A stretch of DNA of 64,000 nt from an uncultured Gemmatimonadota bacterium (GTDB lineage: Bacteria; JAAXHH01): contig OX638340.1 in assembly GCA_951812955.1 (NCBI GenBank), positions 1,664,001 to 1,728,000 on the forward strand, written 5' to 3'. The notes beneath the pieces were generated by a model, which saw nothing but the letters and a program-made list of their open reading frames with translations, was not told where the DNA came from and searched no databases. Below, one piece after another: positions 1,588 through 61,551 of the stretch. The position numbers and the translations under genes were made by a program. Each line of letters starts with the position of its first letter. Position 1 is the stretch's first letter.

Positions 1588-2526
1588 TCAAGCCGCCGGC
1601 TTGCCCCGTTCCGCCGTGATCTTCCTCCCCGGCCTGAAGTACGTCTGCAGGACTTCCAGGAAACTCCGGGCCGCTCGTGACAGGTACCGCCCTTTTAGGT
1701 AGATCGCGCCCATCTTCTGCCGCGGACGGTTTCGAAAGTCGCTGATGGACACCTGCGCGAGCGTGCCGTTTTCCAGCTCTTCCTGGATGGCGACGGAGGG
1801 AACGATGGACAGGCCCGCCTCGATGCGCACGAAGTGCTTGATTACTTCGATCGAACTCAGTTCCATCGCCACGTCGAGCCGCACCCTGGATTGCTCGCAC
1901 AAATCGTCGATCAGCTTCCGGGAGGCGCAGTGCTGGTCGAGCAGGATCAGCGGATATTGCTCCATATCCTTGAGATGCACGGTCCGCCGGTCCGCCAGCG
2001 GATGACCTGGCGGCGTGATCAGCACGTCATGGCGGGAGAACAGCGGGATCGCCTCGATCTCCCGGGGCAGATAGGCCAGCGTGACCACGCCGAGGTCCAC
2101 CTCGCCGTCGACCACTGTCTGGATGGTCCGCAATGACGTGGCATTCTTTACGACGATGTCGATTCCGGGATAGCGGTCCTGGAAGGACTTGAGTATGGCC
2201 GGCAGGCGGTAGCATCCGGTGGTGTCCGACGTGCAGAGCACGAGACGGCCGGCCTCGAGGCGATCCAGGTCTTCCAGTTCCTGAACGGCCTCTTTCATCA
2301 GTCCTTCCATCTCACTCATGTATTTAAGCAGTACCTTCCCTGCCTCGGTGAGCGCGAGATGGCGGGTCGTCCGATGGAACAGTGGCTGGCCGATTTCGCC
2401 TTCGAGCTTGGCCACCTGGATGCTCACGGCCGACTGGGACCGGAAGAGGGCTTTTGCCGCCAGGGAAAAACTGCCGTGACGGGCTACGGCATGAAATGCG
2501 ACGGCTTGATCGTAGGACAGGTTCAT
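1588..2526 (-). CDS. LysR family transcriptional regulator
   Basis: N-terminal wHTH typical of LysR (YDQAVAFHAVARHGSFSLAAKALFRSQSAVSIQVAKLE). About 310 aa with a C-terminal substrate-binding domain. Divergent from the IMPDH-family gene. Confidence 0.85.
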   Translation of the reverse strand: MNLSYDQAVAFHAVARHGSFSLAAKALFRSQSAVSIQVAKLEGEIGQPLFHRTTRHLALTEAGKVLLKYMSEMEGLMKEAVQELEDLDRLEAGRLVLCTSDTTGCYRLPAILKSFQDRYPGIDIVVKNATSLRTIQTVVDGEVDLGVVTLAYLPREIEAIPLFSRHDVLITPPGHPLADRRTVHLKDMEQYPLILLDQHCASRKLIDDLCEQSRVRLDVAMELSSIEVIKHFVRIEAGLSIVPSVAIQEELENGTLAQVSISDFRNRPRQKMGAIYLKGRYLSRAARSFLEVLQTYFRPGRKITAERGKPAA

Positions 2527-18544: not shown

Positions 18545-19747
18545 ATGCCCATCACGGAGGTCCGCGTTCGGCAGGTTGCCGTCCCGAGGATCTATGACAC
18601 TTATTGCGCGGACCCCAAGCACTTGAAGGCTACCATCGACCACGGCCGGTCTACCTACCAGATCATCGAACTGAAGACCCATGATGGCCTGACCGGAATC
18701 GGCGAGGTCTCCGATATCGCGCCGCGGATGGACGCGCCTTCACCCGGATCATTGCAGGACATAGTGTCCAGCGTGCTGGAAGGCGGTGACCCTGCCGCGT
18801 GGCGCAACCTGCATGACCGGGCCGGGGAAGCGCTTCCCGGAGACCTGTACCCGGAACTCAGGCAGTTGATTCTCTTCGGTTTGGAAAGTTCATTGCTCGA
18901 CCTGGTCGGCAAGGCGTACGGCATTCCTCTTTACGAGCTCCTGGGCGGACGATGCCGGCACGCCGCCGCTGTCTCGTGGGTAGCCTACCTGCGCGGCGAC
19001 GCCGCCCTCGAAGATGAGCTGCAGGCGCTCGAGCTGGAGATGGCAGACCAGGTGGGATCGGGCATGAAGGCCTTCAAGCTCAAGGTGGGCGAGGACCACG
19101 AACGCGACCTGGAGAGGGTCCGGCTGGCACGGAGGATCGCGGGAGCCGGAGCGTACATCAAGGTGGATGCCAGCGGTTTCTGGGAAGAAGACGAGGCCCT
19201 GTCCAGGCTGCACGACATGGCGGAGGCCGGCGCCGACGCGTGCGAGACGCCGATTCGCGCGCTCTCGAGACCCATGTCGCGGGAGGATCCCGCCCGAATC
19301 GAATCAGAAGCGGACGGGATTGCCGAAGCGCTGGCAGGTGTCCGCGGCAGTTCCCCCATACCGATCATCGAGCATGTCGCCGATCTCGGAGATGTATTCC
19401 TGACGGCCCTGATCCGGCGTCGCGCCGTGGACATCGTCAACGTCGTTCCCTGCCAGGCCGGCGGGCTGCGCCGCGCCAAGCGACTGCTCCACGCCGCAGA
19501 GACCGCGGGCATGCCCGCATTGCTGGGCAGCACGATCGAATTGGGACCCGGAACGGCGGCGGCGGTACATCTCGCCGTTTCGTCGGCAAGCGTCAACGTG
19601 CCCTCGGACCTGGTGGGTCCCGGACTGCTCCAGGACGACGTGTGCACCACCCCATTCACCCTCGAAGGAGGTGAGCTTTCGCCTTTCAAGGGGCCGGGAC
19701 TCGGCATCGAGCTGGATGAAGAGAAACTGGCGCGGTGGACGGGTTAA
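18545..19747 (+). CDS. enolase-superfamily enzyme (mandelate racemase/muconate lactonizing family)
   Basis: Capping domain plus barrel motifs KLKVG and KVDASG. Confidence 0.8.
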   Translation: MPITEVRVRQVAVPRIYDTYCADPKHLKATIDHGRSTYQIIELKTHDGLTGIGEVSDIAPRMDAPSPGSLQDIVSSVLEGGDPAAWRNLHDRAGEALPGDLYPELRQLILFGLESSLLDLVGKAYGIPLYELLGGRCRHAAAVSWVAYLRGDAALEDELQALELEMADQVGSGMKAFKLKVGEDHERDLERVRLARRIAGAGAYIKVDASGFWEEDEALSRLHDMAEAGADACETPIRALSRPMSREDPARIESEADGIAEALAGVRGSSPIPIIEHVADLGDVFLTALIRRRAVDIVNVVPCQAGGLRRAKRLLHAAETAGMPALLGSTIELGPGTAAAVHLAVSSASVNVPSDLVGPGLLQDDVCTTPFTLEGGELSPFKGPGLGIELDEEKLARWTG

Positions 19748-24195: not shown

Positions 24196-25839
24196 ATGCA
24201 ATACGGTTTCATCATCGACAACAGGAAATGTATCGGGTGCCACGCCTGCACCGTCGCGTGCAAGGCCGAGCACGAGGTGCCCCTCGGCGTCAACCGGACC
24301 TGGGTGAAATACATCGAGAAGGGGACCTATCCGAACACGACCAGGCATTTCTCGGTCATGCGGTGCAATCACTGCGAGGACGCCCCCTGCGTGGAGATCT
24401 GCCCGGTGACGGCGCTGTATACGCGGAAAGACGGCATCGTGGATTTCGATCCACGCAGATGCATCGGATGCAAGGGCTGCATGCAGGCCTGCCCGTACGA
24501 CGCGCTCTACATCGACCCGGACACCCATACGGCGGCAAAGTGCAACTACTGCGCCCATCGGGTGGATATCGGCCTCGAACCCGCCTGCGTGAACGTCTGC
24601 CCTGAACACGCCATCATATCCGGCGACATGGACGATGATTCCACGGAGATCGCCCAGTTGCTCGCGAAGGAACAGGTGACGGTCCGCAAGGTGGAAAAGG
24701 ACACGAAACCCCGCCTGTACTATATCGACGGCGACGAAGCCTCGTTGACGCCCGGGGAAACCGCGACGTCCGACAATTACATGTGGAGCTCACAATCGGA
24801 CGGCGTGGGCCACTTCGCAAGATACATCGAGGAAAGGACCGCCCGCGCGAATCCGGAGGACATGGTCAGACAGCTTGGTGGGGAGAACCAGGGCGGACAG
24901 GTTGGCGGCGGGCAAGATGGCGCCGGCGTACGCGGCGAACAAGATAGCGACAAAGATGAGAGATCCGGCAAAGGCGCCGCGGCGCGCAGGGTCTACGACG
25001 CGCCGGACAAGGGCGTGCTGTGGGGAAACGACGTAGCCGCATACGTTTGGACCAAGGCCATCTCGGCGGGTGCTTTCCTCCTTCCCTTCGCGGCCTCGGT
25101 CCTGGGCATGACGATAGATCCTTTTCTTTCCTGGTTCGGAAGTACCATCGCCCTGACCTTTCTCCTGGCCACGACGATCCTCCTGGTGAGCGATCTGACC
25201 CAGCCCAGACGATTTCTCTATGTACTGCTCCGTCCTCAGTGGAAATCCTGGCTCGTGCTCGGAGGCTACGCGTTGACCCTCTACGGGCTGGCGCTCACGC
25301 TGTGGGCCGTGGCAATGTGGACCGGCCGAACCGGGGCTGCCGAAATCATCGGCTGGATCGCGGCCGTACTGGCGGTCCTTACGGCTGTATATACGGCCTT
25401 TCTATTCGCCCAGGCCAAAGGACGGGATTTCTGGCAAAGCCCCACGCTCGTCCTGCACATGCTGCTCCACGCGGTGCTCGCCGGCGCGGGGGTTTTCGCT
25501 ATCGCGCTTCTGTTCAGTGCGTCGGGCGAAGCGTGGACCGCCTTCGTCCGGAATACGCTGATCGTCGCCATCATCCTGAACCTGCTCGTAATCGCATCTG
25601 AAATGCTGACCCCCCATCCGACCGCCGACGCGCGGAAAGCCGTGCAGGCCATCGTCCGCGGCCGGTACCGGGGGTATTTCTGGATCCTGGGCATCGCCCT
25701 GGGCAACATAGCGCCCGTCGTACTGGCCTGGGCCGGTGGCGAAACGATGCTCGCCGCGGCCGGCGTGGGCGTGCTGATCGGCCTGTACGCGACCGAGTAC
25801 GTCTGGGTCAGGGCGCCGCAGGACATACCGCTGAGTTGA
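24196..25839 (+). CDS. fusion protein: 4Fe-4S dicluster ferredoxin domain (DmsB/PsrB-like) plus NrfD/PsrC-like 8-TM membrane anchor
   Basis: N-terminal domain has four Cys clusters (CIGCHACTVAC, CNHCEDAPCVEICP, CIGCKGCMQACP, CNYCAHRVDIGLEPACVNVCP). Gly-rich linker. Eight predicted TM helices in the C-terminal ~280 aa. Confidence 0.75.
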   Translation: MQYGFIIDNRKCIGCHACTVACKAEHEVPLGVNRTWVKYIEKGTYPNTTRHFSVMRCNHCEDAPCVEICPVTALYTRKDGIVDFDPRRCIGCKGCMQACPYDALYIDPDTHTAAKCNYCAHRVDIGLEPACVNVCPEHAIISGDMDDDSTEIAQLLAKEQVTVRKVEKDTKPRLYYIDGDEASLTPGETATSDNYMWSSQSDGVGHFARYIEERTARANPEDMVRQLGGENQGGQVGGGQDGAGVRGEQDSDKDERSGKGAAARRVYDAPDKGVLWGNDVAAYVWTKAISAGAFLLPFAASVLGMTIDPFLSWFGSTIALTFLLATTILLVSDLTQPRRFLYVLLRPQWKSWLVLGGYALTLYGLALTLWAVAMWTGRTGAAEIIGWIAAVLAVLTAVYTAFLFAQAKGRDFWQSPTLVLHMLLHAVLAGAGVFAIALLFSASGEAWTAFVRNTLIVAIILNLLVIASEMLTPHPTADARKAVQAIVRGRYRGYFWILGIALGNIAPVVLAWAGGETMLAAAGVGVLIGLYATEYVWVRAPQDIPLS

Positions 25840-26009
25840 GTAGGACTTACCGCTGAGTTAAGAAGGACATAGCACCGAGCTGACATAAACGCTGCCTGGC
25901 CCGTTCCGGGAATCGGCACGGCCGGAAACTGCCCCGGGTTCGACGACATTCCACTGCCGCGGGCTCGACGACACAATGAAGGAAGACACAGCAGACAGGA
26001 ATCACCAAC

Positions 26010-28871
26010 ATGTCCATACGCCATAAACCGGGACTGATCGAATCGCTGGCCGAGAAAGTCGGCCTGATTCCCAACCTGCACGAAGAGGACGGACCGGATC
26101 TGCCCAGTCTCACCGAAGGCGGCGCGCTCACGGACTATCCGCCCCCTGACCAGTGGGACGACTGGGTGGAGTACGAGGCGCAGGACTGGCCGAAACAACA
26201 GGCCAAACACTACATGGTGGTGCCGACGGCCTGCTTCAACTGCGAGGCCGGGTGCGGACTCCTCAGCTACGTCGACAAGGAGACGATGGAAGTCCGCAAG
26301 TTCGAGGGGAACCCCTACCATCCCGCCAGCCGGGGACGCAATTGCGCCAAGGGTCCAGCGACCATAAACCAGATCCGTGACACGGACCGCATACTATACC
26401 CCATGCGCCGGTCCGGCGCCCGGGGAAGCGGGGAGTGGGAGCAGGTGTCCTGGGATACGGTGCTGGACGACATCGCGGCCCGGATACGGGAGCGGCTGCA
26501 ACAGGGCGCGAACAACGAAATCGCCTATCACGTGGGCCGGCCCGGGGCCGAAGGCTACATCGACCGCGTGCTCAAGGCCTGGGGCGTCGACGGGCACAAC
26601 AGCCACACCAACATCTGCTCGTCGGGCGCCCGCTTCGGCTACGCCCTATGGCATTTCTTCGACCGGCCGTCGCCCGACCACGCCAATGCGCGGTTTATCC
26701 TGCTGATCAGCGCTCACCTGGAATCGGGGCACTACTTCAATCCCCACGCACAGCGGATCATCGAGGGCATGATGAACGGCGCGAAGCTTGCCGTCATGGA
26801 CCCGAGACTGTCCAATACGGCCAGCATGGCCGACCACTGGTTGCCCACCTATCCCGGCAGCGAGGCCGCGGTATTGCTGGCCATGGCCAACGTCATCCTG
26901 CAGGACGGCCTTTACGATGCGGAGTTCATGAAGACGTGGGTGAACTGGCAGACCTACCTGGAGAAGGAACACCCGGAAGCACCGCGCACCTTCGATCGGT
27001 TCATCGAAGCGCTCAAGTCGGTCTACAGCGAGTACACGCCCGAGTTCGCCGAACAGGAGAGCGGCGTGCCGGCTGCCCAGATTGCCGAGATCGGCCGCGA
27101 GATCGGCCGGGCGGGATCGCGGTTCGCCACCCACAACTGGCGCAGCGCGGGTAGCGGAAACGCCGGCGGCTGGGCCGTGGCCCGCTGCCTCCACTTCCTG
27201 AACGTACTCACCGGCAGCGTGGGCACGGAGGGTGGGACCTCGCCGAGCGGGTGGAACAAGTTCAAACCCAACGTATTCGACCATCCCCCGGATCAGAAGT
27301 TTTGGAACGAACTGCATTTCCCGAAGGAATACCCCCTCTCCCACTACGAGATGAGTTTTCTCCTCCCCCATTTCCTGAAAGAAGGACGGGGGAAGCTGGC
27401 TGTCTACTTCACCCGGGTGTTCAATCCCGTGTGGACGTACCCGGACGGGTTTACCTGGGTCGAAGCGCTCCGCGATGAGGAGAAGGTCGGGCTGCACGCG
27501 GCCCTGACGCCTACGTGGAACGAGACCGCCTTTTTCGCCGACTACGTACTGCCCATGGGCCACGCCAGCGAACGCCACGACATTATCAGCTACGAGACCC
27601 ACTCGGGCACCTGGATCGGTTTCCGCCAGCCCGTCCTGCGCGAGGCCCGGCGTCGCATGGGCGACCCGGTGGATTTCACCTACGAGGCGAACCCCGGCGA
27701 GGTATGGGAAGAGGACGAGTTCTGGATCGAGCTGTCCTGGCGCATCGATCCCGACGGCAGCCTGGGGATCAGGGACCACTTCATCTCGCCGTACAGGCCG
27801 GGTGAGAAAATCACCATCGACGAATACTACCGGTACATCTTCGACAACGTGGACGGACTGCCCGAGGCCGCCGCGAAAGAGGATCTTTCAACTCTGGATT
27901 ACATGCGAAAGTACGGCGCCTTCGAGGTGGAGAAGACGGCCTACGCGAAACATCTCAAGACACTGGACGACGAGGCCGTCGCGGGCGCTAAGGTCGATCC
28001 GGAGACCAATGCCCTGGTCGCAGGCGGCAAGACCGTGGGCGTGATGGTGGACGGCGCGCCGCGGGCGGGCTTCCCCACGCCGTCTCTGAAGCAGGAGTTC
28101 TATTCCCAGACCATGGTGGACTGGGGCTGGCCGGAGTACGCCATACCCACCTACATCAAGAGCCACGTGCATCCCGACGAACTCGACCGTGAGAACGGCG
28201 AGTACCCGCTGGTGCCCACCTTCAGGCTGCCCACACTGATCCACTCGCGGTCCGGCAACGCCAAGTGGCTCAACGAGATCTCCAACCGCAATCCCGTGTG
28301 GATGCACCGGCGGGACGCCGAAAAGATGGGCATTGGCACGGACGACCTGGTCCGGGTGACCACCGAAATCGGCCATTTCGTCGACCGCGTCTGGGTCACC
28401 GAGTCCATGAAACCCGGAGTCGTCGCCTGCTCCCACCATCTCGGGCGCTGGCGGCGCAAACAGGACGCGGACGGAAACCGCTGGTCGGTGAACCTGGTGG
28501 ATATCCAGGAAGAGGACGGCGGGAAGTGGCGCATGCGTGTGATGGACGGAATCAGACCCTATGAAAGCGCAGACCGCGACTCCTCGCGCATCTTCTGGCG
28601 GGACGGCGGCGTGCACCAGAACATCACCTTCCCCGTGCACCCAGATCCCGTGAGCGGCATGCACTGCTGGCACCAGAAGGTCAAAGTGGAAAAGGCCCGC
28701 GAAGAGGACGCCTACGGGGACGTGATGGTGGATACGGAGAAGTCCTTCGAAGTCTACCGCGCATGGCTGGACCAGACCCGGCCCGCGCCAGGTCCGGGCG
28801 GCCTGCGCCGTCCCCTCTGGTTCAACCGACCCCTGCGTCCGGCCGAAGAGACCTTCTACCTGCCTGAATAG
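26010..28871 (+). CDS. molybdopterin oxidoreductase catalytic subunit (DMSO-reductase family, Psr/Phs/Ttr/Soe-like), no Tat signal
   Basis: N-terminal FeS motif C-x2-C-x3-C-x33-C (CFNCEAGCG...CAKG). 953 aa. An in-frame TGA sits 33 nt upstream of the ATG, so an N-terminal twin-arginine extension is not possible. Confidence 0.85.
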   Translation: MSIRHKPGLIESLAEKVGLIPNLHEEDGPDLPSLTEGGALTDYPPPDQWDDWVEYEAQDWPKQQAKHYMVVPTACFNCEAGCGLLSYVDKETMEVRKFEGNPYHPASRGRNCAKGPATINQIRDTDRILYPMRRSGARGSGEWEQVSWDTVLDDIAARIRERLQQGANNEIAYHVGRPGAEGYIDRVLKAWGVDGHNSHTNICSSGARFGYALWHFFDRPSPDHANARFILLISAHLESGHYFNPHAQRIIEGMMNGAKLAVMDPRLSNTASMADHWLPTYPGSEAAVLLAMANVILQDGLYDAEFMKTWVNWQTYLEKEHPEAPRTFDRFIEALKSVYSEYTPEFAEQESGVPAAQIAEIGREIGRAGSRFATHNWRSAGSGNAGGWAVARCLHFLNVLTGSVGTEGGTSPSGWNKFKPNVFDHPPDQKFWNELHFPKEYPLSHYEMSFLLPHFLKEGRGKLAVYFTRVFNPVWTYPDGFTWVEALRDEEKVGLHAALTPTWNETAFFADYVLPMGHASERHDIISYETHSGTWIGFRQPVLREARRRMGDPVDFTYEANPGEVWEEDEFWIELSWRIDPDGSLGIRDHFISPYRPGEKITIDEYYRYIFDNVDGLPEAAAKEDLSTLDYMRKYGAFEVEKTAYAKHLKTLDDEAVAGAKVDPETNALVAGGKTVGVMVDGAPRAGFPTPSLKQEFYSQTMVDWGWPEYAIPTYIKSHVHPDELDRENGEYPLVPTFRLPTLIHSRSGNAKWLNEISNRNPVWMHRRDAEKMGIGTDDLVRVTTEIGHFVDRVWVTESMKPGVVACSHHLGRWRRKQDADGNRWSVNLVDIQEEDGGKWRMRVMDGIRPYESADRDSSRIFWRDGGVHQNITFPVHPDPVSGMHCWHQKVKVEKAREEDAYGDVMVDTEKSFEVYRAWLDQTRPAPGPGGLRRPLWFNRPLRPAEETFYLPE

Positions 28872-31529: not shown

Positions 31530-32597
31530 ATGACCACTGACGACCGCCTCGTATCTCTGCTCCAGGAACTCGTGTACGCCCGGGGACCTTCAGGCCAGGA
31601 GGACGAGGTCCGGACGGTCTGTGAACGGGAACTGCAAACTCTTTGCGACGAGACCCGGGTCGACGCCGCCGGCAACGTCATCGGCCTGATGAAGGGTCTA
31701 AAGGCGGACGCCCCGGTAATCCGTGTGATGGCGCACCTGGACGAACTGGCCCTGGTCGTCAAGCGCGTCAACGAGGACGGAACCCTCCGGGTCAATCCAC
31801 TCGGAGGCATCTACCCGGCGAACTACGGGCAGGGACCTGTCGAGATCCTGGCGGACAGCGGCATCCTTCCCGGCGTGCTCTCTGTCGGACCGCAGCATAC
31901 AACGGCCGATTCCGCCCGGATCTGGGAGACCAAGATCAAGGGCGGCAACGTGGCCATGGATTGGAATCACGTGTACGTGTTCACGCGCATGACGCCGGCG
32001 CAGCTGCGGGAAGCGGGCGTGCACGCCGGCACCCGCGTGGTCATCGCCCGGTCACGGCGAGCATTCCTGGAAGTCGAAGACTGCATCGGCGGGTATTTCA
32101 TGGACAATCGGGCGGCCATCGCCATCGCCATCGGCGCGGCCGCGCGTATGAGGGACCAGGGCGTCCGGCCCGCTGGCGACGCCTACCTGGTGATGACCAC
32201 CTGCGAGGAGATCGGCGGCCACGGCGCCGCGTACGCCGCGCGGACCCTGCCCGGCGACGTGTCCCTGGCCGTGGATTCAGGACCGGCCTGCGAAGAATAC
32301 GGGGTGGCCCTTTCCGACGACCCCGTCGTAGTATACGGCGACGCCGGGGGACTCTACGACAAGTCCGTCGCGGACCGCCTGCTGGCATGCGGGCGGGAAC
32401 TGGGCATGGACCCCCAGTGCGCGTACTGGCAGAGCTACGCCTCCGACGCGTCCATGGCGAAGTCCGTGGGCCAGACGCCCCGGGCCGGCCTGCTCTGCAT
32501 CCCCACGGAGAACACCCACGGATACGAGATCATACCCCGCAACGGGTTGAACCGGTGCGTCGCCCTGCTGGCGGCCTACCTTGAAAAACCGGAGTAG
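31530..32597 (+). CDS. M42 family metallopeptidase (glutamyl aminopeptidase / FrvX-like)
   Basis: M42 motifs (DDRLVSLLQELV, AHLDELAL, GGYFMDNRAAIA, EEIGGHGA). Confidence 0.8.
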   Translation: MTTDDRLVSLLQELVYARGPSGQEDEVRTVCERELQTLCDETRVDAAGNVIGLMKGLKADAPVIRVMAHLDELALVVKRVNEDGTLRVNPLGGIYPANYGQGPVEILADSGILPGVLSVGPQHTTADSARIWETKIKGGNVAMDWNHVYVFTRMTPAQLREAGVHAGTRVVIARSRRAFLEVEDCIGGYFMDNRAAIAIAIGAAARMRDQGVRPAGDAYLVMTTCEEIGGHGAAYAARTLPGDVSLAVDSGPACEEYGVALSDDPVVVYGDAGGLYDKSVADRLLACGRELGMDPQCAYWQSYASDASMAKSVGQTPRAGLLCIPTENTHGYEIIPRNGLNRCVALLAAYLEKPE

Positions 32598-32619
32598 CCG
32601 AGAGGAGCGGAGGACCTTC

Positions 32620-33885
32620 ATGTCCCTGAAAGTCACCAACGTGGAAAGATTCACCGTCACCGTGCCCTTCACGCAGGGTCAACGGCCCATGGCCGAGCGA
32701 ACGGTATACAACTGGTCCGTCTTCGAACTGTGCAAGGTCTCAACCGACGCCGGGCTCGTGGGCTGGGGCGAGACCATCGTCCATTACATCCATGCGCGGG
32801 TGACCGACCGGAGCGTGGAACGCGTCATGGGAAAGAGCCCTGCGGACTTCATGCAGGACGATACGATTGGCGCCGGGCTGCAGATGGCCCTGTACGACGT
32901 GGTGGGCAAAGCGCTCGAGGTGCCCTGCCACAAGCTCCTGGGCAACAAGGTGCGTGACTGGGTGCCCATTTCCTGGTGGTCCAACGAAGGGCCTCCAGAC
33001 GACTGGGTCCGACAGGCGCGGGACGCTGTAGACAACGGGTACACCACCATCAAGCTCAAACAGCGGCCCTGGCATGACATCAACGAACAGATGGAGGCGA
33101 TCGACGCATCCGTGCCGCGCCACTTCCGGGTGGATCTCGACGCCAACGGTTCCATGCACAACGCGGCGGCGGCCATGCCCGTCATGCGCGGCCTGGAGCG
33201 ATTCGACATCGTGGCCATGTTCGAGACGCCCATACCGCAGACCGACATCCTGGGGAACCGCCAGCTCCGGCAGGTCATCAACCGTCCCATCGCCATGCAT
33301 TTCGGCTCGCCGCCCTACACCACGGTGGTCCGCGAAGCGGTATGTGACGGTTTCGTCGTCGGTGGAGGCGCCTCGCGGGTGATGTACCAGGGGATTCTCA
33401 GCGCGGAAGCCAACATGCCCTTCTGGCTCCAGATGGTCGGCAACGGACTTACCACCACGTGGGCCGCCCATCTCGGCGCCGTGCTCACCCACGCCACCTG
33501 GCCCGCCATCACCTGTATCAACCTGTACCGCCACCACCTGCTCAAAAGTCCCATCGAAGTCGTGGGCGGCTTCCACCGCGTGCCCGACGGACCGGGTCTG
33601 GGCGTGGAAGTGGACGAAGAGGCCATGCACGGCTTCCTCGTTCCAAACGACGTGATGCGGCCATTCCACGACCGGGACGAGCCGTACGACTTCCCGAGGC
33701 CCCGGTTTATCCGCACGGCGGTGTTTCCGGATGGGCGCCGCGTCCATTTTGGGAATATCCGCCACGGGTGGGAACTGGAGGCCTACACGCCCGGCGTACG
33801 CACGGAATACTGGCGGGAAGACGGCACCGAAGGTTTCGAAGACCTCTGGAGCCGTACGCAGGAACGGCCCGTATCCGAGGGATGA
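32620..33885 (+). CDS. enolase-superfamily enzyme (mandelate racemase/muconate lactonizing family)
   Basis: KLKQ and VDLDANGS barrel motifs. Start ATG 32620 with a GAGGAGCGGAGGA ribosome-binding site. The stop lies inside the first unit of the 21-bp repeat array. Confidence 0.75.
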   Translation: MSLKVTNVERFTVTVPFTQGQRPMAERTVYNWSVFELCKVSTDAGLVGWGETIVHYIHARVTDRSVERVMGKSPADFMQDDTIGAGLQMALYDVVGKALEVPCHKLLGNKVRDWVPISWWSNEGPPDDWVRQARDAVDNGYTTIKLKQRPWHDINEQMEAIDASVPRHFRVDLDANGSMHNAAAAMPVMRGLERFDIVAMFETPIPQTDILGNRQLRQVINRPIAMHFGSPPYTTVVREAVCDGFVVGGGASRVMYQGILSAEANMPFWLQMVGNGLTTTWAAHLGAVLTHATWPAITCINLYRHHLLKSPIEVVGGFHRVPDGPGLGVEVDEEAMHGFLVPNDVMRPFHDRDEPYDFPRPRFIRTAVFPDGRRVHFGNIRHGWELEAYTPGVRTEYWREDGTEGFEDLWSRTQERPVSEG

Positions 33886-34052
33886 ACGACCGGGGTGGTC
33901 GGACGAACGACCGGGGTGGTCGGACGAACGACCGGGGTGGTCGGACGAACGACCGGGGTGGTCGGACGAACGACCGGGGTGGTCGGACGAACGACCGGGG
34001 AGGTCGGACCAAACGACCGGGGAGGCCGGACCGAGCGACCGGGGAGGCCGGA
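33884..34052. repeat. 21-bp tandem array x8 (GAACGACCGGGGTGGTCGGAC), each unit an internal palindrome CGACC-N5-GGTCG
   Basis: Seen directly: five perfect copies at 33884-33988 and three degenerate copies to 34052. No unique spacers. Intergenic, between the enolase-family gene and the SDR gene. Confidence 0.9.
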
Positions 34053-34172
34053 CCAGACCGCATGGTGAGAACGGTGCCACGTTGACACGTAACCAGGGAT
34101 CGGTAAACTGCCGGCAAGACGGGCATTTCTTAAAAATTCGTATAAGGAAGACCAGGTAACCGGAGCAGAACC

Positions 34173-39152: not shown

Positions 39153-40835
39153 TTAGCTATTGGGCATAGATGTAGGATGTATCTGGTCAAGTGAAGTCTT
39201 AAAGTCCTTTATTTCATAAAGTATAAATCGATCCGCATCATTCAATAAACCACGTAAACGATTCCCATAGTCTATATCGAGATGTTTCTGGCCACCGTGT
39301 ATTATTGAGTGTATTAAAAAACTCCTCATGTATCCTTCATCACCACTTTCATTAAGACGACTGACTTCTCTAAGTACAACTTCGAACATTTCAACAATAA
39401 ACCTATACTCAAATCGCTCAGATTCCAAGATTGTGGCGAGACAAGTCCCAAGTGCAACTGCAGAAGACAAAGGGATGTTATCGTTTGGAAGTGACCAAGT
39501 ATTCCAATCAAGAATTACCCCGTTGTTTTGCTTTGGTAGGTTTCTATGGTGTGAGTCATCTGGTAATTCAGAAACTAGATGAATCCAACTACATAAAGTG
39601 CTTAATACCACATAAACCAATCTAGCCGATCGTGTTGGGAATTCGTCTGTAGTATCCACAGATGGATCAGACGAATCATAGGAACCTTCCAAAGCATCGA
39701 TAACAGACGTCATGTAATAAAGCCACATATGCCATGTAACACCCTGATAGGCTGCGGCTTTAACCATAAGGTCGAAAAACACAACTCCGACAAACACACC
39801 ATTCTCCCAACACTCATAATCGAATTCAACCGCAGTACCCTGTAAGTAATCTACAAAATCAGAAGACTTGTTTGGATTCAGTAACTGTAGGATATGCTTC
39901 CCAACCGGTTGCCATACTTCCAGTTGTAGCGCTATGTTTGCATTCGAAAAGAGAAAATACAAGAGACGATTGCTTACAGGAAACTCATAGCCATGTTGGT
40001 AAGAAATGTTCTGGTTGTATTGGATTTCTTGGTATAGAACGCTTCCTGTGTCAGCGATTAACAGGCTTAAGTATTTTTCAGAAAACTGACGACTACCAAA
40101 TATGTCCTGGTAAATCAGCGGAATCGCAAAGTACGGTCTATTTGTTGCGATATAAACCCGAAGTTCTTCGGACTGAAAAAACACGCGCGCGATGTTTTCC
40201 GCAGAATCTTGAGCACTGTACTGACTAGGTACAATAAACGCTAGTTTACCAAGCCATCGTCGCCCCACTTTAAACAAACCACTTCGATGTGTTGCTGCAG
40301 ATTGTGATTCCTGATCCAAAACCGTGTATCTTAATGCCGCAATATCTCCTTGCATGGCCCCCAAATTGTCATGATGTCGTTGTAAAAACAGCTTTCGATG
40401 TGATGCCTTCCCAATTACTGGTAAATAGGGTTCGATGAATTCAAGCAATTCAGAATACCGCTTTTCAAGCGATAACCGATCTACTATTCGAGCGATTCTT
40501 ACTAGCAAAAAGGACGAGAATAGCCTCGGGATGCTCAAGTGTATTACTATAGCAAAGATGATCCAAAACAAGACTACGAAAAAGGCAACACCGGAGGGAG
40601 AAAGTGGGCTGGATTCTTTGAAAACAATCCACGTGCATAAACTACCTAGAACAGCTGGGCAAGGTTGCCCAAAAACTTCGAAAAACTCAAGATAAACTAC
40701 TATGAAAAGCGAAACTAACGCTAGTGGGATCTGAAGGACAATGACCAGCTTAGCACGTAGTTTATCAACATGCGTGGCAAGTGTATATGCAGCTAGTACT
40801 AGAGTTAAGAATGTTAGAAAACCGTCTAGGGTCAT
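39153..40835 (-). CDS. hypothetical protein: N-terminal multi-TM segment plus a ~400-aa soluble domain, in an AT-rich islet
   Basis: Long ORF whose GC (~40%) is far below the contig's. Four to five N-terminal TM helices. No recognisable motifs. Confidence 0.55.
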   Translation of the reverse strand: MTLDGFLTFLTLVLAAYTLATHVDKLRAKLVIVLQIPLALVSLFIVVYLEFFEVFGQPCPAVLGSLCTWIVFKESSPLSPSGVAFFVVLFWIIFAIVIHLSIPRLFSSFLLVRIARIVDRLSLEKRYSELLEFIEPYLPVIGKASHRKLFLQRHHDNLGAMQGDIAALRYTVLDQESQSAATHRSGLFKVGRRWLGKLAFIVPSQYSAQDSAENIARVFFQSEELRVYIATNRPYFAIPLIYQDIFGSRQFSEKYLSLLIADTGSVLYQEIQYNQNISYQHGYEFPVSNRLLYFLFSNANIALQLEVWQPVGKHILQLLNPNKSSDFVDYLQGTAVEFDYECWENGVFVGVVFFDLMVKAAAYQGVTWHMWLYYMTSVIDALEGSYDSSDPSVDTTDEFPTRSARLVYVVLSTLCSWIHLVSELPDDSHHRNLPKQNNGVILDWNTWSLPNDNIPLSSAVALGTCLATILESERFEYRFIVEMFEVVLREVSRLNESGDEGYMRSFLIHSIIHGGQKHLDIDYGNRLRGLLNDADRFILYEIKDFKTSLDQIHPTSMPNS

Positions 40836-45886: not shown

Positions 45887-46462
45887 TCATTCCTCGATCA
45901 TACCCAGGATCTCTACCAGGTGATCGGTTGACGGCCGGTCAAAGGGATCGGAACCCACATACTTGAACCGAAGGACGCCTTCCTTGTCGATGATGAAGGC
46001 GGTGGGAATGACTTCCTCTCCTTTGTCGGTAGCTTTTTGAATCTTGAACTTCGTGGGTATGGCCCGGTCCGGGTCGGCAAGTACGGGGAAGGAAAGCGCT
46101 TCCCGGGTGACTTTCGACTTGGCGACGAAGTCTCTGGTCTGATCGAGATCTTCGGGATTGATGAAGAGTAGTTCCGTGCCCGTTTCAGCTATGCGTTCGT
46201 AGTCGGATTGCAACTGCCCCAGTTGCCGTAAGCAAAGGGGTCACCAGTAGCCGATCCAGCCACGGTCGACAACCACCAGGAGGTTCTTGCTGCCCCTGTA
46301 ATCGGCGAAGTTGACCGTCTCACCGTTGACGTCCTGCAGGCTGTACTCCGGCGCGGGCTGGCCTACCCTCGGAGCCAGATTTCTGGGTTGAGCGTCGGCG
46401 GTTTCCGCCACCAGGCCGACCAGCGCCAGGGCGAAGCACCACCGCGCTAATGCACGTACCAT
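45887..46462 (-). CDS. secreted redoxin (AhpC/TSA / thioredoxin-fold) protein with an in-frame TGA at the first position of the C-x-x-C motif: candidate selenoprotein (U-P-L-C)
   Basis: The two listed ORFs 46241..46627 and 45887..46213 share one frame and are separated only by a TGA (plus 46241-46243). Read through, the translation gives ...LLVVVDRGWIGYW-[TGA]-PLCLRQLGQ..., the W-C-P-x-C redoxin active site with TGA in place of TGC. Start at ATG 46462 with an AGGAGG ribosome-binding site and a signal peptide. A GCAACUG-GGG-CAGUUGC hairpin starts ~15 nt after the UGA. Confidence 0.55.
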
Positions 46463-46613
46463 AGTCTTCCTCCTCGATTGGATGTCATCCTTCTCGTTTC
46501 TATAGCAATTCGCTTGCGTTTTGTTCCCTTTAATATAACCTACCCCGGTACGCCTGTGAACTTCATTTTTAATGATACGCTGCATTGTGAAGGATAGGGA
46601 GGAGCCGTTTTCC

Positions 46614-47405
46614 ATGACACCGGGCATAACCCAACTCTGTCTCGGCCGCCAGGATCTTGAAGAGGATCTTTCCAGGACCCGTAACCTGGGCTATGAGGCC
46701 ATCGAACTGGTGTTTTCCGATGAGGGATCGCCGAACATAGACGCTTCGACATCGGAAATCGCCGCGGTCGCCGAAGCCTGCCGTAGACACGGACTCGATC
46801 TGTGTTCCATGATCGCCATCAGGAAAGATGCCGGTTCCCTGTTATCGCCGTCCGCGGCCGAACGGGCGAAGCGGGTCGCCATCCTCGAGCGGGGCTTTGA
46901 AATTGCCGAGATCCTTGGTGTGGACGCCCTGCTCCTGCATCCCGGGGCACTCGATCCGAAGAGTTCCTACAGCACGACCTGGGACAACTTCCGCGACGCC
47001 CTCCGCGATCTCGCCCCCTCAGCGGAGCGCCACGGTACCCGTATCGGCATCGAGAACGTGTGGAACCAGTTCTTGCTGAGTCCCCGGGAAGCCCGTCAAC
47101 TCGTCGACGAGGTCGGGTCGTCCGCCGTTGGGATCTACCTGGACACAGCCAACATGATCCTCTACGGATATCCGGACATGTGGATCCGGGAACTCGGAAG
47201 CCGGATATTCAAGGTGCACGTGAAGGATTTCCGCCGCGGGGAAGGCGCCTGGGTCCAGCTGATGGACGGCGACACGGACTGGCCGGCGGTCATGGCCGAA
47301 TTGCGCGGCATCGGATTCGACGGCGCCCTGGTGAGCGAAGTCGGCGGCGACGATGTCGCCATGCGGGAAACCGCCGAGCGCATCAGGCGGATCATCGCCC
47401 TGTAG
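46614..47405 (+). CDS. sugar phosphate isomerase/epimerase (xylose isomerase-like TIM barrel)
   Basis: AP-endonuclease-2 / XI-like TIM-barrel motifs (GYEAIEL, GIENVWN, YLDTANM). GGGAGGAG ribosome-binding site. Confidence 0.75.
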   Translation: MTPGITQLCLGRQDLEEDLSRTRNLGYEAIELVFSDEGSPNIDASTSEIAAVAEACRRHGLDLCSMIAIRKDAGSLLSPSAAERAKRVAILERGFEIAEILGVDALLLHPGALDPKSSYSTTWDNFRDALRDLAPSAERHGTRIGIENVWNQFLLSPREARQLVDEVGSSAVGIYLDTANMILYGYPDMWIRELGSRIFKVHVKDFRRGEGAWVQLMDGDTDWPAVMAELRGIGFDGALVSEVGGDDVAMRETAERIRRIIAL

Positions 47406-56083: not shown

Positions 56084-57334
56084 CTACGTATCTTTGGAGA
56101 GCATCAACTGGATTTTGGGATGGAGATGGCTAACAAGCCTATTCAAGTGATCCCTCATCCAGGAAACAGCGTTCTCGAAATCCGGGGTTTCCCCTTCTTG
56201 TGACAGAAACGACATATCACAGTCCAGATAAAACCCAATTCTTGGTCTATCGGCCGTGTTGTACCACTGGTCGAGGTTATTACCAAGTACTTTTTTAAGA
56301 TCCTCAAACGAGGCATTGATTTCTTCAAAGATCCTGACTTCTCGAGTCTGGTTTTTACGAACTGTAAGATAGCATCCGATTGCCCCGTTTTGTCGGTACA
56401 GATAACCCACAAAACTCAATGCCCAACCGTTGAATGATGAATTCTTTACTGGTAAATATAGAGTTGGATCTTTAGGTGGTTTGGGCCATAACTCAGTCAG
56501 TGAATCTATGGTTGAATCCGAAAACGAGAAATCTTTCAAAACTGCATTCCAAAATCGCAGGTTTTCCTTTTCATATGGTGATTCTTGATAATCATCATCA
56601 CTAGATTCGTCCAGGTCTGCAGGTACGACAGCTCCATTATCACTCTCAATTACGAAACGTCGTACGATTTCAGTACGCGCAAGTACACGAGGATGAACAA
56701 ACAGATTGTGGGCTTTATCGCGGTAAAGGGCCGCTTCCACTAGTGCCAGGTTGAAGTGTAATCCACTGTGGCGCTGTACGAAATCTACTATGTTTTCCAC
56801 ACCTTCCCGAATACCATCGCCAACTATCAATAGTAGGAATTCCCCGCGTTTCAGGTGACGTGAGACATTGTCAACGAATTCAGCTTCATTCAGGTTTGAT
56901 TTTTCTTTACGCACTTTTACGTAGAGAACATTCCCATTCATGCCGGTATTCAGAGATACTTCACGTTGCAAATCTTCGTAATCCCACGAAGCTACTTCCT
57001 TCGTGTAGTCGAGTATTTGGCCAATAACCTCTCGCCGTGCCTGCTGGTTACGCCAGAGTTTGAACTCAACTAGTACAAGTTTTCCTAAGTGGTTTGCGTA
57101 TAACGCGTCTAAGTATCCAGCATTAGTATTCAACTCTCGACAGATTGGAACTAATCCTTCGTATGCAGGATCGATGGCTGTTATTGGTAGAGCTTGTGGA
57201 TGACAAAAAAGAAGCTTTTGTAGCTTTTCTTCGTAAATGCTCCCGTCAGATACTCCAGTATCAAGTGGGACACGAGTTACAACTTCTGGATCTTCGTCTT
57301 CGACATTATTCACAATGATCAGTTTATCTGACAT
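56084..57334 (-). CDS. hypothetical protein with a PD-(D/E)xK-like nuclease motif, in an AT-rich islet
   Basis: ORF GC is ~40%. The block D-x11-LVLVEFK (…YLDALYANHLGKLVLVEFKLW…) resembles restriction-endonuclease-fold motifs II/III. No other domain recognised. Confidence 0.45.
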   Translation of the reverse strand: MSDKLIIVNNVEDEDPEVVTRVPLDTGVSDGSIYEEKLQKLLFCHPQALPITAIDPAYEGLVPICRELNTNAGYLDALYANHLGKLVLVEFKLWRNQQARREVIGQILDYTKEVASWDYEDLQREVSLNTGMNGNVLYVKVRKEKSNLNEAEFVDNVSRHLKRGEFLLLIVGDGIREGVENIVDFVQRHSGLHFNLALVEAALYRDKAHNLFVHPRVLARTEIVRRFVIESDNGAVVPADLDESSDDDYQESPYEKENLRFWNAVLKDFSFSDSTIDSLTELWPKPPKDPTLYLPVKNSSFNGWALSFVGYLYRQNGAIGCYLTVRKNQTREVRIFEEINASFEDLKKVLGNNLDQWYNTADRPRIGFYLDCDMSFLSQEGETPDFENAVSWMRDHLNRLVSHLHPKIQLMLSKDT

Positions 57335-60441: not shown

Positions 60442-61551
60442 TCAGTCTATCACGGCCCTTTCGACCATCTGTTGTTCGAGCAGTTCCGGCACGGGTTCCG
60501 CCCCCGCGCCGGGCGTATCAGAAAGGACCATTTGCGATGGGCCCGAAAGTTCCAGTCGCGGCGCGCTCAGGTCCCGCTCGTAGAACCTGGTACTGGGAAA
60601 AACGTCCGATGGGTATTTCATATTGGGCAGCGTCGCCAGCGCCATGCAGAACGAAGCGCCCAGGGCCGATTCGAGCATGCCGCCCGTCCAGCAGGGAACG
60701 CCCTCCTCTTCGCATATCCGGTTCACCTCGAGCGCCTGGGTCACCCCGCCGACCCGGGCGGGCTTGATGTTGATCCACCGGGCCGCGCCTATGCTGATCG
60801 CCTTTCGGGCCCTGTCGGGTGACGTAATGCTCTCGTCCAGGCATATCGGCGTCTCGATCGCGCTTTGCAACTCGGCGTGGTCGACCAGGTCGTCCCGCAT
60901 CAGCGGCTGCTCGATCATGGCCAGGTTGTACCGGTCCAGTTTCCTGAACATGGGCAGGTCGTCCAGCGTGTATCCGCTGTTGCAGTCGATGTGAAAAACG
61001 GAGTCCGGGAAGGCCGATCGGACCGCCGCGATCATGTCCAGATCCCATCCCCGGCTGTACTTCAGCTTGATCCGCTTGAAGCCCGCCTCCACGGCCTGCT
61101 CGATATTGCCCAGCAGCATGTCGATACTGTCCTGCACGCCGAAGTCCGCGCCAACCTCGATGACCGGCCCTTTGCCGCCAATCACCTGCCAGAGCGGCTT
61201 GCCCTCCATCCGGGCGTGCAGGTCCCACCACGCCGCGTCCAGGCCTCCCTTGGCGAAGTAGTTGCCCGCGACCCAGGCGCAGGTCTCGTGCAGATCCCGG
61301 CCGCTGTCGACCCGCCTGCCCACCAGCAGGGGAGCGAGCACGTCACGGGTCACGGCGTATACACCGGCCGTGTATTCCGGGCTGTAGGTTGGCCGGGCGA
61401 GGGGAGTCGTCTCGCCCCAGCCCACGGCATCGCCGGCATGCATCTTCACGATGACGCTCTCGATGACGTCGTCACTGCCGTAGGCCGTGCGCCACGGATA
61501 GATCAGGGGCATGGCGACGTGATATAGCTCGACTGCGTCGATGACGGGCAT
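60442..61551 (-). CDS. enolase-superfamily enzyme (o-succinylbenzoate synthase / N-acylamino-acid racemase subgroup)
   Basis: KLK, DCN and D-E-S barrel ligands (RIKLKYS, HIDCNSGY, CLDESI). Confidence 0.75.
   Translation of the reverse strand: MPVIDAVELYHVAMPLIYPWRTAYGSDDVIESVIVKMHAGDAVGWGETTPLARPTYSPEYTAGVYAVTRDVLAPLLVGRRVDSGRDLHETCAWVAGNYFAKGGLDAAWWDLHARMEGKPLWQVIGGKGPVIEVGADFGVQDSIDMLLGNIEQAVEAGFKRIKLKYSRGWDLDMIAAVRSAFPDSVFHIDCNSGYTLDDLPMFRKLDRYNLAMIEQPLMRDDLVDHAELQSAIETPICLDESITSPDRARKAISIGAARWINIKPARVGGVTQALEVNRICEEEGVPCWTGGMLESALGASFCMALATLPNMKYPSDVFPSTRFYERDLSAPRLELSGPSQMVLSDTPGAGAEPVPELLEQQMVERAVID

Follow-up and report, generated by a model that had tools for sequence, protein, structure and literature searches.

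Peroxiredoxin (Prx)-like and thioredoxin-fold proteins with a UxxC motif, where U stands for selenocysteine (Sec), are among the commonest bacterial selenoprotein types known (PMC2398784). The 'Prx-like thiol:disulfide oxidoreductase' (PF00578, UxxC) is considered a high-confidence prokaryotic selenoprotein family (PMC13188914), and 'Prx-like 1' ranks with the most abundant families of the Global Ocean Sampling (GOS) selenoproteome (PMC2398784), the GOS/Sargasso family having first been described by Kryukov and Gladyshev in 2004 (listed in PMC13188914 and PMC2398784). The bacterial Sec insertion sequence (bSECIS) that accompanies the UGA codon is characterized by a loop of 3-9 nt, an upper stem of 4-16 bp and a G in the first two loop positions, as well as by a UGA-to-loop distance of 16-37 nt and a free energy of -7.5 kcal/mol or lower (PMC13188914). 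Here we analyzed a redoxin gene at 45887..46462 of a 64,000-nt stretch of DNA (hereafter the window; contig OX638340.1, positions 1,664,001 to 1,728,000, assembly GCA_951812955.1) from an uncultured Gemmatimonadota bacterium. Comparative sequence evidence makes it very probable that this locus is a genuine selenoprotein gene, coding for an exported redoxin with Sec at the catalytic position. Judged by domain and motif, the gene would fit as a further member of the known Prx-like UxxC selenoprotein class.

The gene and all of its features lie on the minus strand. It appears as two open reading frames (ORFs) in the same frame, 46241..46627 and 45887..46213, which are parted by a single TGA at 46243..46241. 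A preliminary description had pointed to this split and to the motif W-[UGA]-P-L-C that results from reading through it; both were seen in our analysis, and an AhpC-TSA domain was found to span the stop. The selenoprotein gene proposed here comprises 191 codons including the in-frame UGA and ends with a terminal TGA (45889..45887), its translation from the ATG at 46462 being MVRALARWCFALALVGLVAETADAQPRN...DRGWIGYW*PLCLRQLGQLQ...FIIDKEGVLRFKYVGSDPFDRPSTDHLVEILGMIEE. When Cys was put at the stop, a single AhpC-TSA domain was obtained across the TGA (87 bits against a cutoff of 26, E=1.2e-24, profile positions 1-123 of 124), the gathering score of PF00578 being exceeded by the read-through protein. 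The Redoxin domain crosses the TGA of the same Cys-substituted protein likewise (E=6.5e-20).

The best matches among solved structures are the Geobacter thioredoxin family protein 3kcm and ResA (4nmu, 1st9), with E values of about 2e-9. Since W-U-P-L-C aligns with the W-C-x-x-C of ResA and 3kcm, the proposed Sec74 (46241..46243) would be placed at the N-terminal, nucleophilic first Cys of the motif. The resolving residue of U-P-L-C is Cys77 (TGC codon, 46232..46234), which is invariant in the family alignment and whose column corresponds to the second Cys of CxxC proteins and, in Prx homologues, to the peroxidatic Cys. The codon of Pro153 (46004..46006), in V-I-P-T-A-F-I-I-D, probably marks the cis-Pro loop of the thioredoxin fold. 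In 3kcm this residue has the P of 'VPETFVID' as its counterpart and in ResA 4nmu that of 'LPTSFLID', and the 20 nt after its codon are invariant in orthologues; its cis conformation is what we assume from knowledge of the family. This alignment leads us to regard the predicted product as a ResA/TlpA-like thiol-disulfide oxidoreductase that is exported and uses a Sec-Cys redox pair.

Conservation of the internal TGA was assessed in nine orthologous loci, namely L001-L006 from species-representative genomes, L081 from a metagenome, L161 and the window locus itself. They span 65-96% amino acid identity, with L161 at 65% (72% at the nucleotide level) and L081 at 96%. The latter is MKWU01000794.1, from an Aplysina aerophoba metagenome, and the metagenome-assembled genomes (MAGs) that carry orthologues are sponge-associated and labelled Latescibacterota/Gemmatimonadetes. 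Codon 74 is TGA in all nine loci, which stem from independent assemblies and align end to end without indels or frameshifts. Moreover, the terminal stop differs among the orthologues (TGA or TAG), whereas the internal TGA never does. A protein search with the read-through query returned 28 close homologues (68-93% identity), and every one of these 28 protein clusters is a C-terminal fragment of 108-109 aa, all cut at one place. The presence of the TGA in nine independently assembled loci, together with 28 clusters cut at the same place, shows that it is not a sequencing error.

Coding constraint was found on both sides of the TGA. In six pairwise comparisons dN/dS was 0.02-0.17 upstream, within the mature N-terminal part, while in the six comparisons downstream it was 0.08-0.18, plus 0.34 in the near-identical L081 pair. 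Because dN/dS is low on either side, the sequences indicate that both halves are translated and under purifying selection, in agreement with the initial impression of a gene that has not decayed. About half of the genes in the window terminate with TGA, so that this codon is an ordinary stop in this organism; on this ground we rejected genetic codes 4 and 25, in which TGA is reassigned throughout the genome.

The same column was also followed in more remote homologues, where it holds TGA in 10 distant UxxC loci and Cys (TGT or TGC) in 35 CxxC loci. The expectation that Cys-containing homologues carry Cys at this position was thus confirmed by the 35 CxxC loci as well as by ResA and 3kcm. The distant TGA relatives show 28-36% identity and come from Dehalococcoidia as well as from metagenomes of soil and marine origin; the set was made up of the Dehalococcoidia MAGs L008 and L037, the metagenomic L082, L083, L089 and L090, and L162-L167 and L171, which were reached via C-terminal-fragment matches. 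When C-terminal fragments were used for a profile search, fragments of ~95-121 aa again made up 118 of the 120 best matches, and several of them carry the JGI name 'peroxiredoxin (Q/BCP)'. The remaining two are full-length calls and neither is a Cys form (P0096 and P0067; L171:501-950 and L170:420-1028). The DNA of P0096 has a TGA that the source translated as Trp, while in P0067 the Sec codon is replaced by CGA (Arg) and the hairpin described below is kept, which suggests that its CGA is erroneous or arose recently by mutation.

A 7-bp hairpin with a GGG loop had been proposed downstream of the UGA, and it is present (GCAACUG-GGG-CAGUUGC, 46210..46226), with 14 nt between the UGA and the stem and a 3-nt, G-rich loop that begins 21 nt after the UGA, the register of this hairpin among distant homologues being +15..+31. 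The further claim that it fits a bacterial SECIS holds up, as the geometry of PMC13188914 was found (loop GGG of 3 nt, stem of 7 bp, spacing of 21 nt) and compensatory changes were observed in the distant UxxC relatives. Its energy is -7.4 kcal/mol for the bare 17 nt and -8.8 kcal/mol as the minimum-energy fold of +10/+13..+40, to be compared with the criterion of -7.5 kcal/mol; only if the 9-12 nt next to the UGA on its 3' side are left out is the hairpin the minimum-energy fold. By contrast, the lower-stem extension CGG…CCG of the preliminary description was rejected. It adds at most 2 bp, is broken in L001 and L002 by a C>A change in alignment column 258, and worsens the energy of the stem (-6.2 vs -7.4 kcal/mol).

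Hairpins in the same register were found in most of the distant UxxC loci, namely GCAGCUC-GGU-GAGCUGC, UCAGCUC-GUU-GAGUUGA, UCAGCUC-GUG-GAGCUGA, CAGCUG-GUC-CAGCUG, CAGCU-CGUGC-AGCUG and UCAGCUC-GGC-GAGCUGA, and in one distant subgroup the hairpin is offset by 4-5 nt (UCUCGC-AGUU-GCGAGA). When 8 divergent UxxC sequences were aligned, the helix was paired in 89% of cells, with both-side changes in three of its seven pairs, as opposed to at most 46% of cells in controls in which the helix was slid by 1-3 columns. The CAA/CAG codon of Gln80 covaries with the UUG/CUG codon of Leu84, both changes being synonymous. A G-loop hairpin 20-25 nt after the UGA is present in all 18 TGA loci, with a mean of -7.35 kcal/mol; the mean for the 35 Cys loci is -0.14 kcal/mol and one of them has a passing hairpin. 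Overall, a comparable hairpin occurs in ~3% of non-Sec homologous loci (1/35 Cys, 4/113 other).

The hairpin is part of an invariant block of 42 nt (TACTGG TGA CCCCTTTGCTTACGGCAACTGGGGCAGTTGCAA, 46208..46249), every position of which is identical in the nine orthologues. The block reads TAC TGG TGA CCC CTT TGC TTA CGG CAA CTG GGG CAG TTG CAA and no other invariant run of the nine-sequence alignment is as long, the runner-up being 20 nt. Counting only degenerate codons with an invariant amino acid, 12 of 12 codons are identical within the block against 29 of 98 elsewhere (Fisher p=2.2e-6). Protein-level selection cannot account for these frozen synonymous sites, and we therefore infer an overlapping RNA element. 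The constraint also reaches beyond the hairpin: at -6..+14 around the UGA, especially at 46227-46249, five of five codons are frozen, which has a probability of roughly p=0.002 at the background rate. These bases can build a mutually exclusive 5' hairpin (CCCC/GGGG + UUGCU/GGCAA) that is specific to the orthologue clade, and their freezing may reflect a context requirement of recoding, a gating structure or chance. As a SECIS itself this 5' hairpin was rejected, because its UAC loop lacks a G and lies 10 nt from the UGA, and because only 58% of cells are paired in distant homologues, which is no better than in controls.

The comparative data, i.e., the invariant TGA, the dN/dS values, the varying terminal stop and the frozen block, favor Sec recoding over decay or error. 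Several observations nevertheless weigh against a selenoprotein gene, some of which concern the RNA. The free 63-nt RNA (z=-0.33) prefers an alternative fold (-16.3 vs -9.8 kcal/mol), and in it the window hairpin has pair probabilities of ~0, so the stability in free RNA that the preliminary description had implied did not hold, the hairpin not being the minimum-energy fold. The bare hairpin, at -7.4 kcal/mol, falls just short of the -7.5 kcal/mol criterion. It is invariant inside the orthologue clade, and the covariation comes solely from the 8 distant sequences, which represent few lineages. Furthermore, the Cys loci used as a control come from other subfamilies, whose downstream peptides differ, meaning that their comparison with the TGA loci is not like-for-like. 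No relevant Rfam family was detected, either with gathering scores over the whole window or with permissive E-values near the site. On the protein side, no curated NCBIfam selenoprotein cutoff was reached, the best being SelL_rel_redox with 60.8 of 120 bits; no NCBIfam model was passed and four distant relatives failed too, which is probably the reason for the systematic splitting of the family.

The genome context belongs to the same side of the balance. SelA, SelB and SelD were absent from a Pfam scan of ~50 ORFs of the 64-kb window, ARAGORN returned no tRNA in the window and hence no tRNA-Sec, and the ~8 kb past one window end were likewise without sel genes, whereas no recorded sequence continues past the other end. 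The window also contains no convincing second candidate for a TGA-split or short-tail selenoprotein. On the other hand, SelA and SelB COGs have been found to co-occur in most symbiont bins of Aplysina aerophoba (Slaby et al., 2017; PMC5649159), and Table S4 of that study lists SelD too. The 96% orthologue L081 comes from the very metagenome of PMC5649159, where the orthologue is not tied to a bin. Literature searches aimed at the use of Sec in Latescibacterota in particular returned nothing direct.

That Sec is actually inserted, that SelB binds, that the protein is exported and what it acts on physiologically are matters that we only infer, and the following course of events is put forward as a proposal. 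When the ribosome stands at UGA74, the first 10-12 downstream nt would occupy the mRNA channel, leaving the next 17 nt to fold as the 7-bp hairpin with its GGG loop. The hairpin would then recruit SelB.GTP.Sec-tRNA(Sec), so that Sec would be inserted instead of termination taking place. Subsequently, the signal peptide would export the protein, presumably to the periplasm, where it may alternate between the selenol/thiol and the Sec74-Cys77 selenenylsulfide forms and act on disulfides or peroxides of the cell envelope, by reduction or by exchange.

A more far-reaching interpretation may be considered, which we regard as rather unlikely as a whole. According to it, the gene and its relatives would form a large, near-exclusively Sec-containing subfamily of exported or lipoprotein ResA/TlpA-like proteins that curated models do not capture, and the 42-nt block would be an element with two mutually exclusive folds that could gate or tune Sec insertion. 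The subfamily would have the motif [FY]R[GA]-aromatic-[WFM]-U-x-x-C-R-x-Q-L ... FIIDKEG and may lie split into 'peroxiredoxin' fragments across public databases. As for the gating, the 5' hairpin of the sponge-symbiont clade may hide the 5' arm of the SECIS until the ribosome melts it.

Read-through of the UGA without Sec, by near-cognate Trp or Cys or by stimulation from the hairpin, either constitutively or when selenium is scarce, appears very unlikely to us. The UGA is followed by C, and in the context UGA-C termination is weak; read-through might in general be stimulated by a hairpin located downstream, and one family member combines a CGA codon with a retained hairpin. Set against this are the specific bSECIS geometry, with a G-rich apical loop in all 18 TGA loci, and the position of the codon in the column of the catalytic Cys, at which neither Trp nor Arg would be active; fold and motif moreover match a well-documented selenoprotein class. 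We consider it highly improbable that the TGA is a true stop giving separate products, that is, a secreted peptide of 73 residues and perhaps a 108-residue protein starting from TTG 46213, with the hairpin serving translation re-initiation, coupling or attenuation. The TTG start of the downstream ORF does lie inside the hairpin, and both halves are under purifying selection, but the TTG has no ribosome-binding site and the C-terminal piece no signal peptide. The split also falls in the active-site motif of one thioredoxin-fold domain, and therefore neither half would be a functional redoxin, and it falls at the catalytic Cys column every time, in unrelated lineages. Finally, a pseudogene or a sequencing or assembly error, i.e., a TGC>TGA nonsense change in an ordinary CxxC redoxin, is scarcely credible and effectively refuted by conservation: although TGA is one nucleotide away from TGC, gene callers give two fragments and no Sec machinery was seen in the window, sequencing error and recent decay are excluded because the TGA is conserved in the nine orthologues (to 65% aa identity) and in distant relatives, both halves are under selection (dN/dS ~0.02-0.18 on either side, with no frameshifts or other stops), synonymous sites near the TGA are frozen, and the terminal stop varies while the internal one is fixed.

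Regarding expression and export of the predicted selenoprotein, the start codon is likely the ATG at 46462 and not the ATG at 46627 from which the gene had originally been drawn, as ATG 46462 is invariant in all orthologues. As to the strong ribosome-binding site claimed earlier, a GGAGG (46469..46473), read from the sequence, lies 6 nt upstream of ATG 46462. Codons 1-24 (46391..46462; MVRALARWCFALALVGLVAETADA, followed by QP) form a predicted Sec-type signal peptide with charged, hydrophobic and A-D-A regions. The N-terminus, MVRALAR-WCFALALVGLVA-ETADA with Q as the next residue, has, as judged by eye, the layout of a signal peptide with an AxA-type site, in line with the earlier claim. This pattern is kept in L161 despite a near-neutral dN/dS of ~0.95 in that segment, and distant homologues have signal peptides or lipoprotein signals (lipoboxes). 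A promoter-like sequence, TTCACA-17 nt-TATATT (46532..46560), is located in the divergent intergenic region; it is a consensus match only (10/12), and the consensus scan found one site where 0.4 were expected.

The neighbours of the gene are an AP_endonuc_2/xylose-isomerase-like gene, which is syntenic in L161, as well as BtrH_N, HIT, APH and SLT_2 genes and a 139-aa ORF without a Pfam match. These neighbours give no clue to the function of the redoxin. Elsewhere in the window, a 4Fe-4S dicluster/NrfD fusion followed by a 953-aa molybdopterin oxidoreductase (24196-28871, plus strand) constitutes a Psr/Ttr-like module, which is not Sec-dependent since it has no in-frame TGA. Three enolase-superfamily (MR_MLE) genes were identified (18545-19747, 32581-33885 and 60442-61551), along with other carbohydrate-acid and related metabolic genes (GD_AH dehydratase, gluconolactonase, PfkB, GFO_IDH_MocA, DMFA2_C), and this gene set agrees with a report that COG4948 is enriched in some sponge-symbiont guilds. 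A 21-nt tandem repeat (33880-34053, 8.2 copies, 94% matches, unit GGACGAACGACCGGGGTGGTC) starts where the enolase-superfamily gene 32581-33885 (plus strand) has its TGA stop, and the read-through frame of this repeat would encode TTGVVGR repeats. Two minus-strand ORFs, 39153-40835 (560 aa) and 56084-57334 (416 aa), have a third-position GC of 0.36 and 0.39 vs ~0.75-0.8 in their neighbours; they lie in lower-GC stretches, yielded no Pfam match and may have been horizontally acquired. The LysR-family protein at 1588-2526 (minus strand) was found with identical sequence and the same gene order on contig ptg001702l of ENA assembly ERZ18545484 (L168).

If the locus is read as a selenoprotein gene, an annotation error is corrected, in that one functional gene has been recorded as two meaningless fragments, as is the case for 119 of the 120 best family matches listed. 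The gene would further imply the presence of Sec machinery in a sponge-associated lineage labelled Latescibacterota/Gemmatimonadetes, which would fit the reported enrichment of SelA/SelB in symbionts of sponges, and a redox activity that depends on selenium is suggested for the cell envelope of the symbiont. No new mechanism is involved, as UxxC thioredoxin-fold selenoproteins with a SECIS within the ORF are well established; we thus believe that the value of the finding lies in annotation and ecology.

Compared with known protein families, the predicted product aligns with ResA/TlpA/DsbE-type proteins at their WCxxC, to which W-U-P-L-C corresponds, and at the cis-Pro loop 'P-T-x-F-x-I-D', and has a similar domain size. 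Proteins of this type are exported, and the window protein has a predicted export signal, by sequence layout. It differs in having the proposed Sec in place of the nucleophilic Cys, and the identity is only ~25-30%. With 55.3 bits against a cutoff of 170 for ResA (NCBIfam NF002854) and 19.8 bits against a cutoff of 123 for DsbE (TIGR00385), it would act in the manner of these proteins without being their orthologue. A Pfam scan of the window ORFs revealed no cytochrome-c maturation or ccdA/dsbD genes nearby. The SelL-related redox protein family (NCBIfam NF040769) has a Prx-like fold and a Sec redox motif in common with the window protein and is the best NCBIfam match both for it and for four distant UxxC relatives; its cutoff of 120 bits lies above the scores of the window protein (60.8) and of the four relatives (60-97), and only the N-terminal ~100 of 173 profile positions were matched. 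Typical Prx/BCP proteins (TxxC) carry T or S, three residues before the peroxidatic Cys, in the column in which the window protein has U (FTGVC, FSPVC), so the window protein is not assigned to them; Pro-Thr fills the loop that corresponds to the conserved Prx Arg. Among the metagenome homologues retrieved, L092, L100, L054 and L127 have an in-frame TGA at the peroxidatic Cys (F-T-P-V/T-*); they are peroxiredoxin selenoproteins of the classical TxxU kind, and each has a hairpin of its own further downstream.

With respect to the RNA, the candidate SECIS resembles the E. coli fdhF-type bSECIS and the bSECISearch consensus in being a hairpin within the ORF immediately 3' of the UGA, with a small apical loop, an early G and a spacing within 16-37 nt. 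Unlike the E. coli fdhF-type element, it has a short perfect stem of 7 bp, a 3-nt loop and no bulged U, it lacks a supported lower stem, and the 5' flank in this clade can form a competing hairpin. The window clade and its relatives are set apart from the Prx-like UxxC selenoproteins by the motif [FY]R[GA]-aromatic-[WFM]-U-x-x-C...Q-L...FIIDKEG and by passing no curated NCBIfam model. At the same time, there is a close resemblance to the Prx-like thiol:disulfide oxidoreductase selenoproteins (PF00578, UxxC), judged by domain and motif: both have an AhpC-TSA domain, a UxxC motif with Sec first, a SECIS hairpin downstream within the ORF, abundant Cys homologues and a marine setting.

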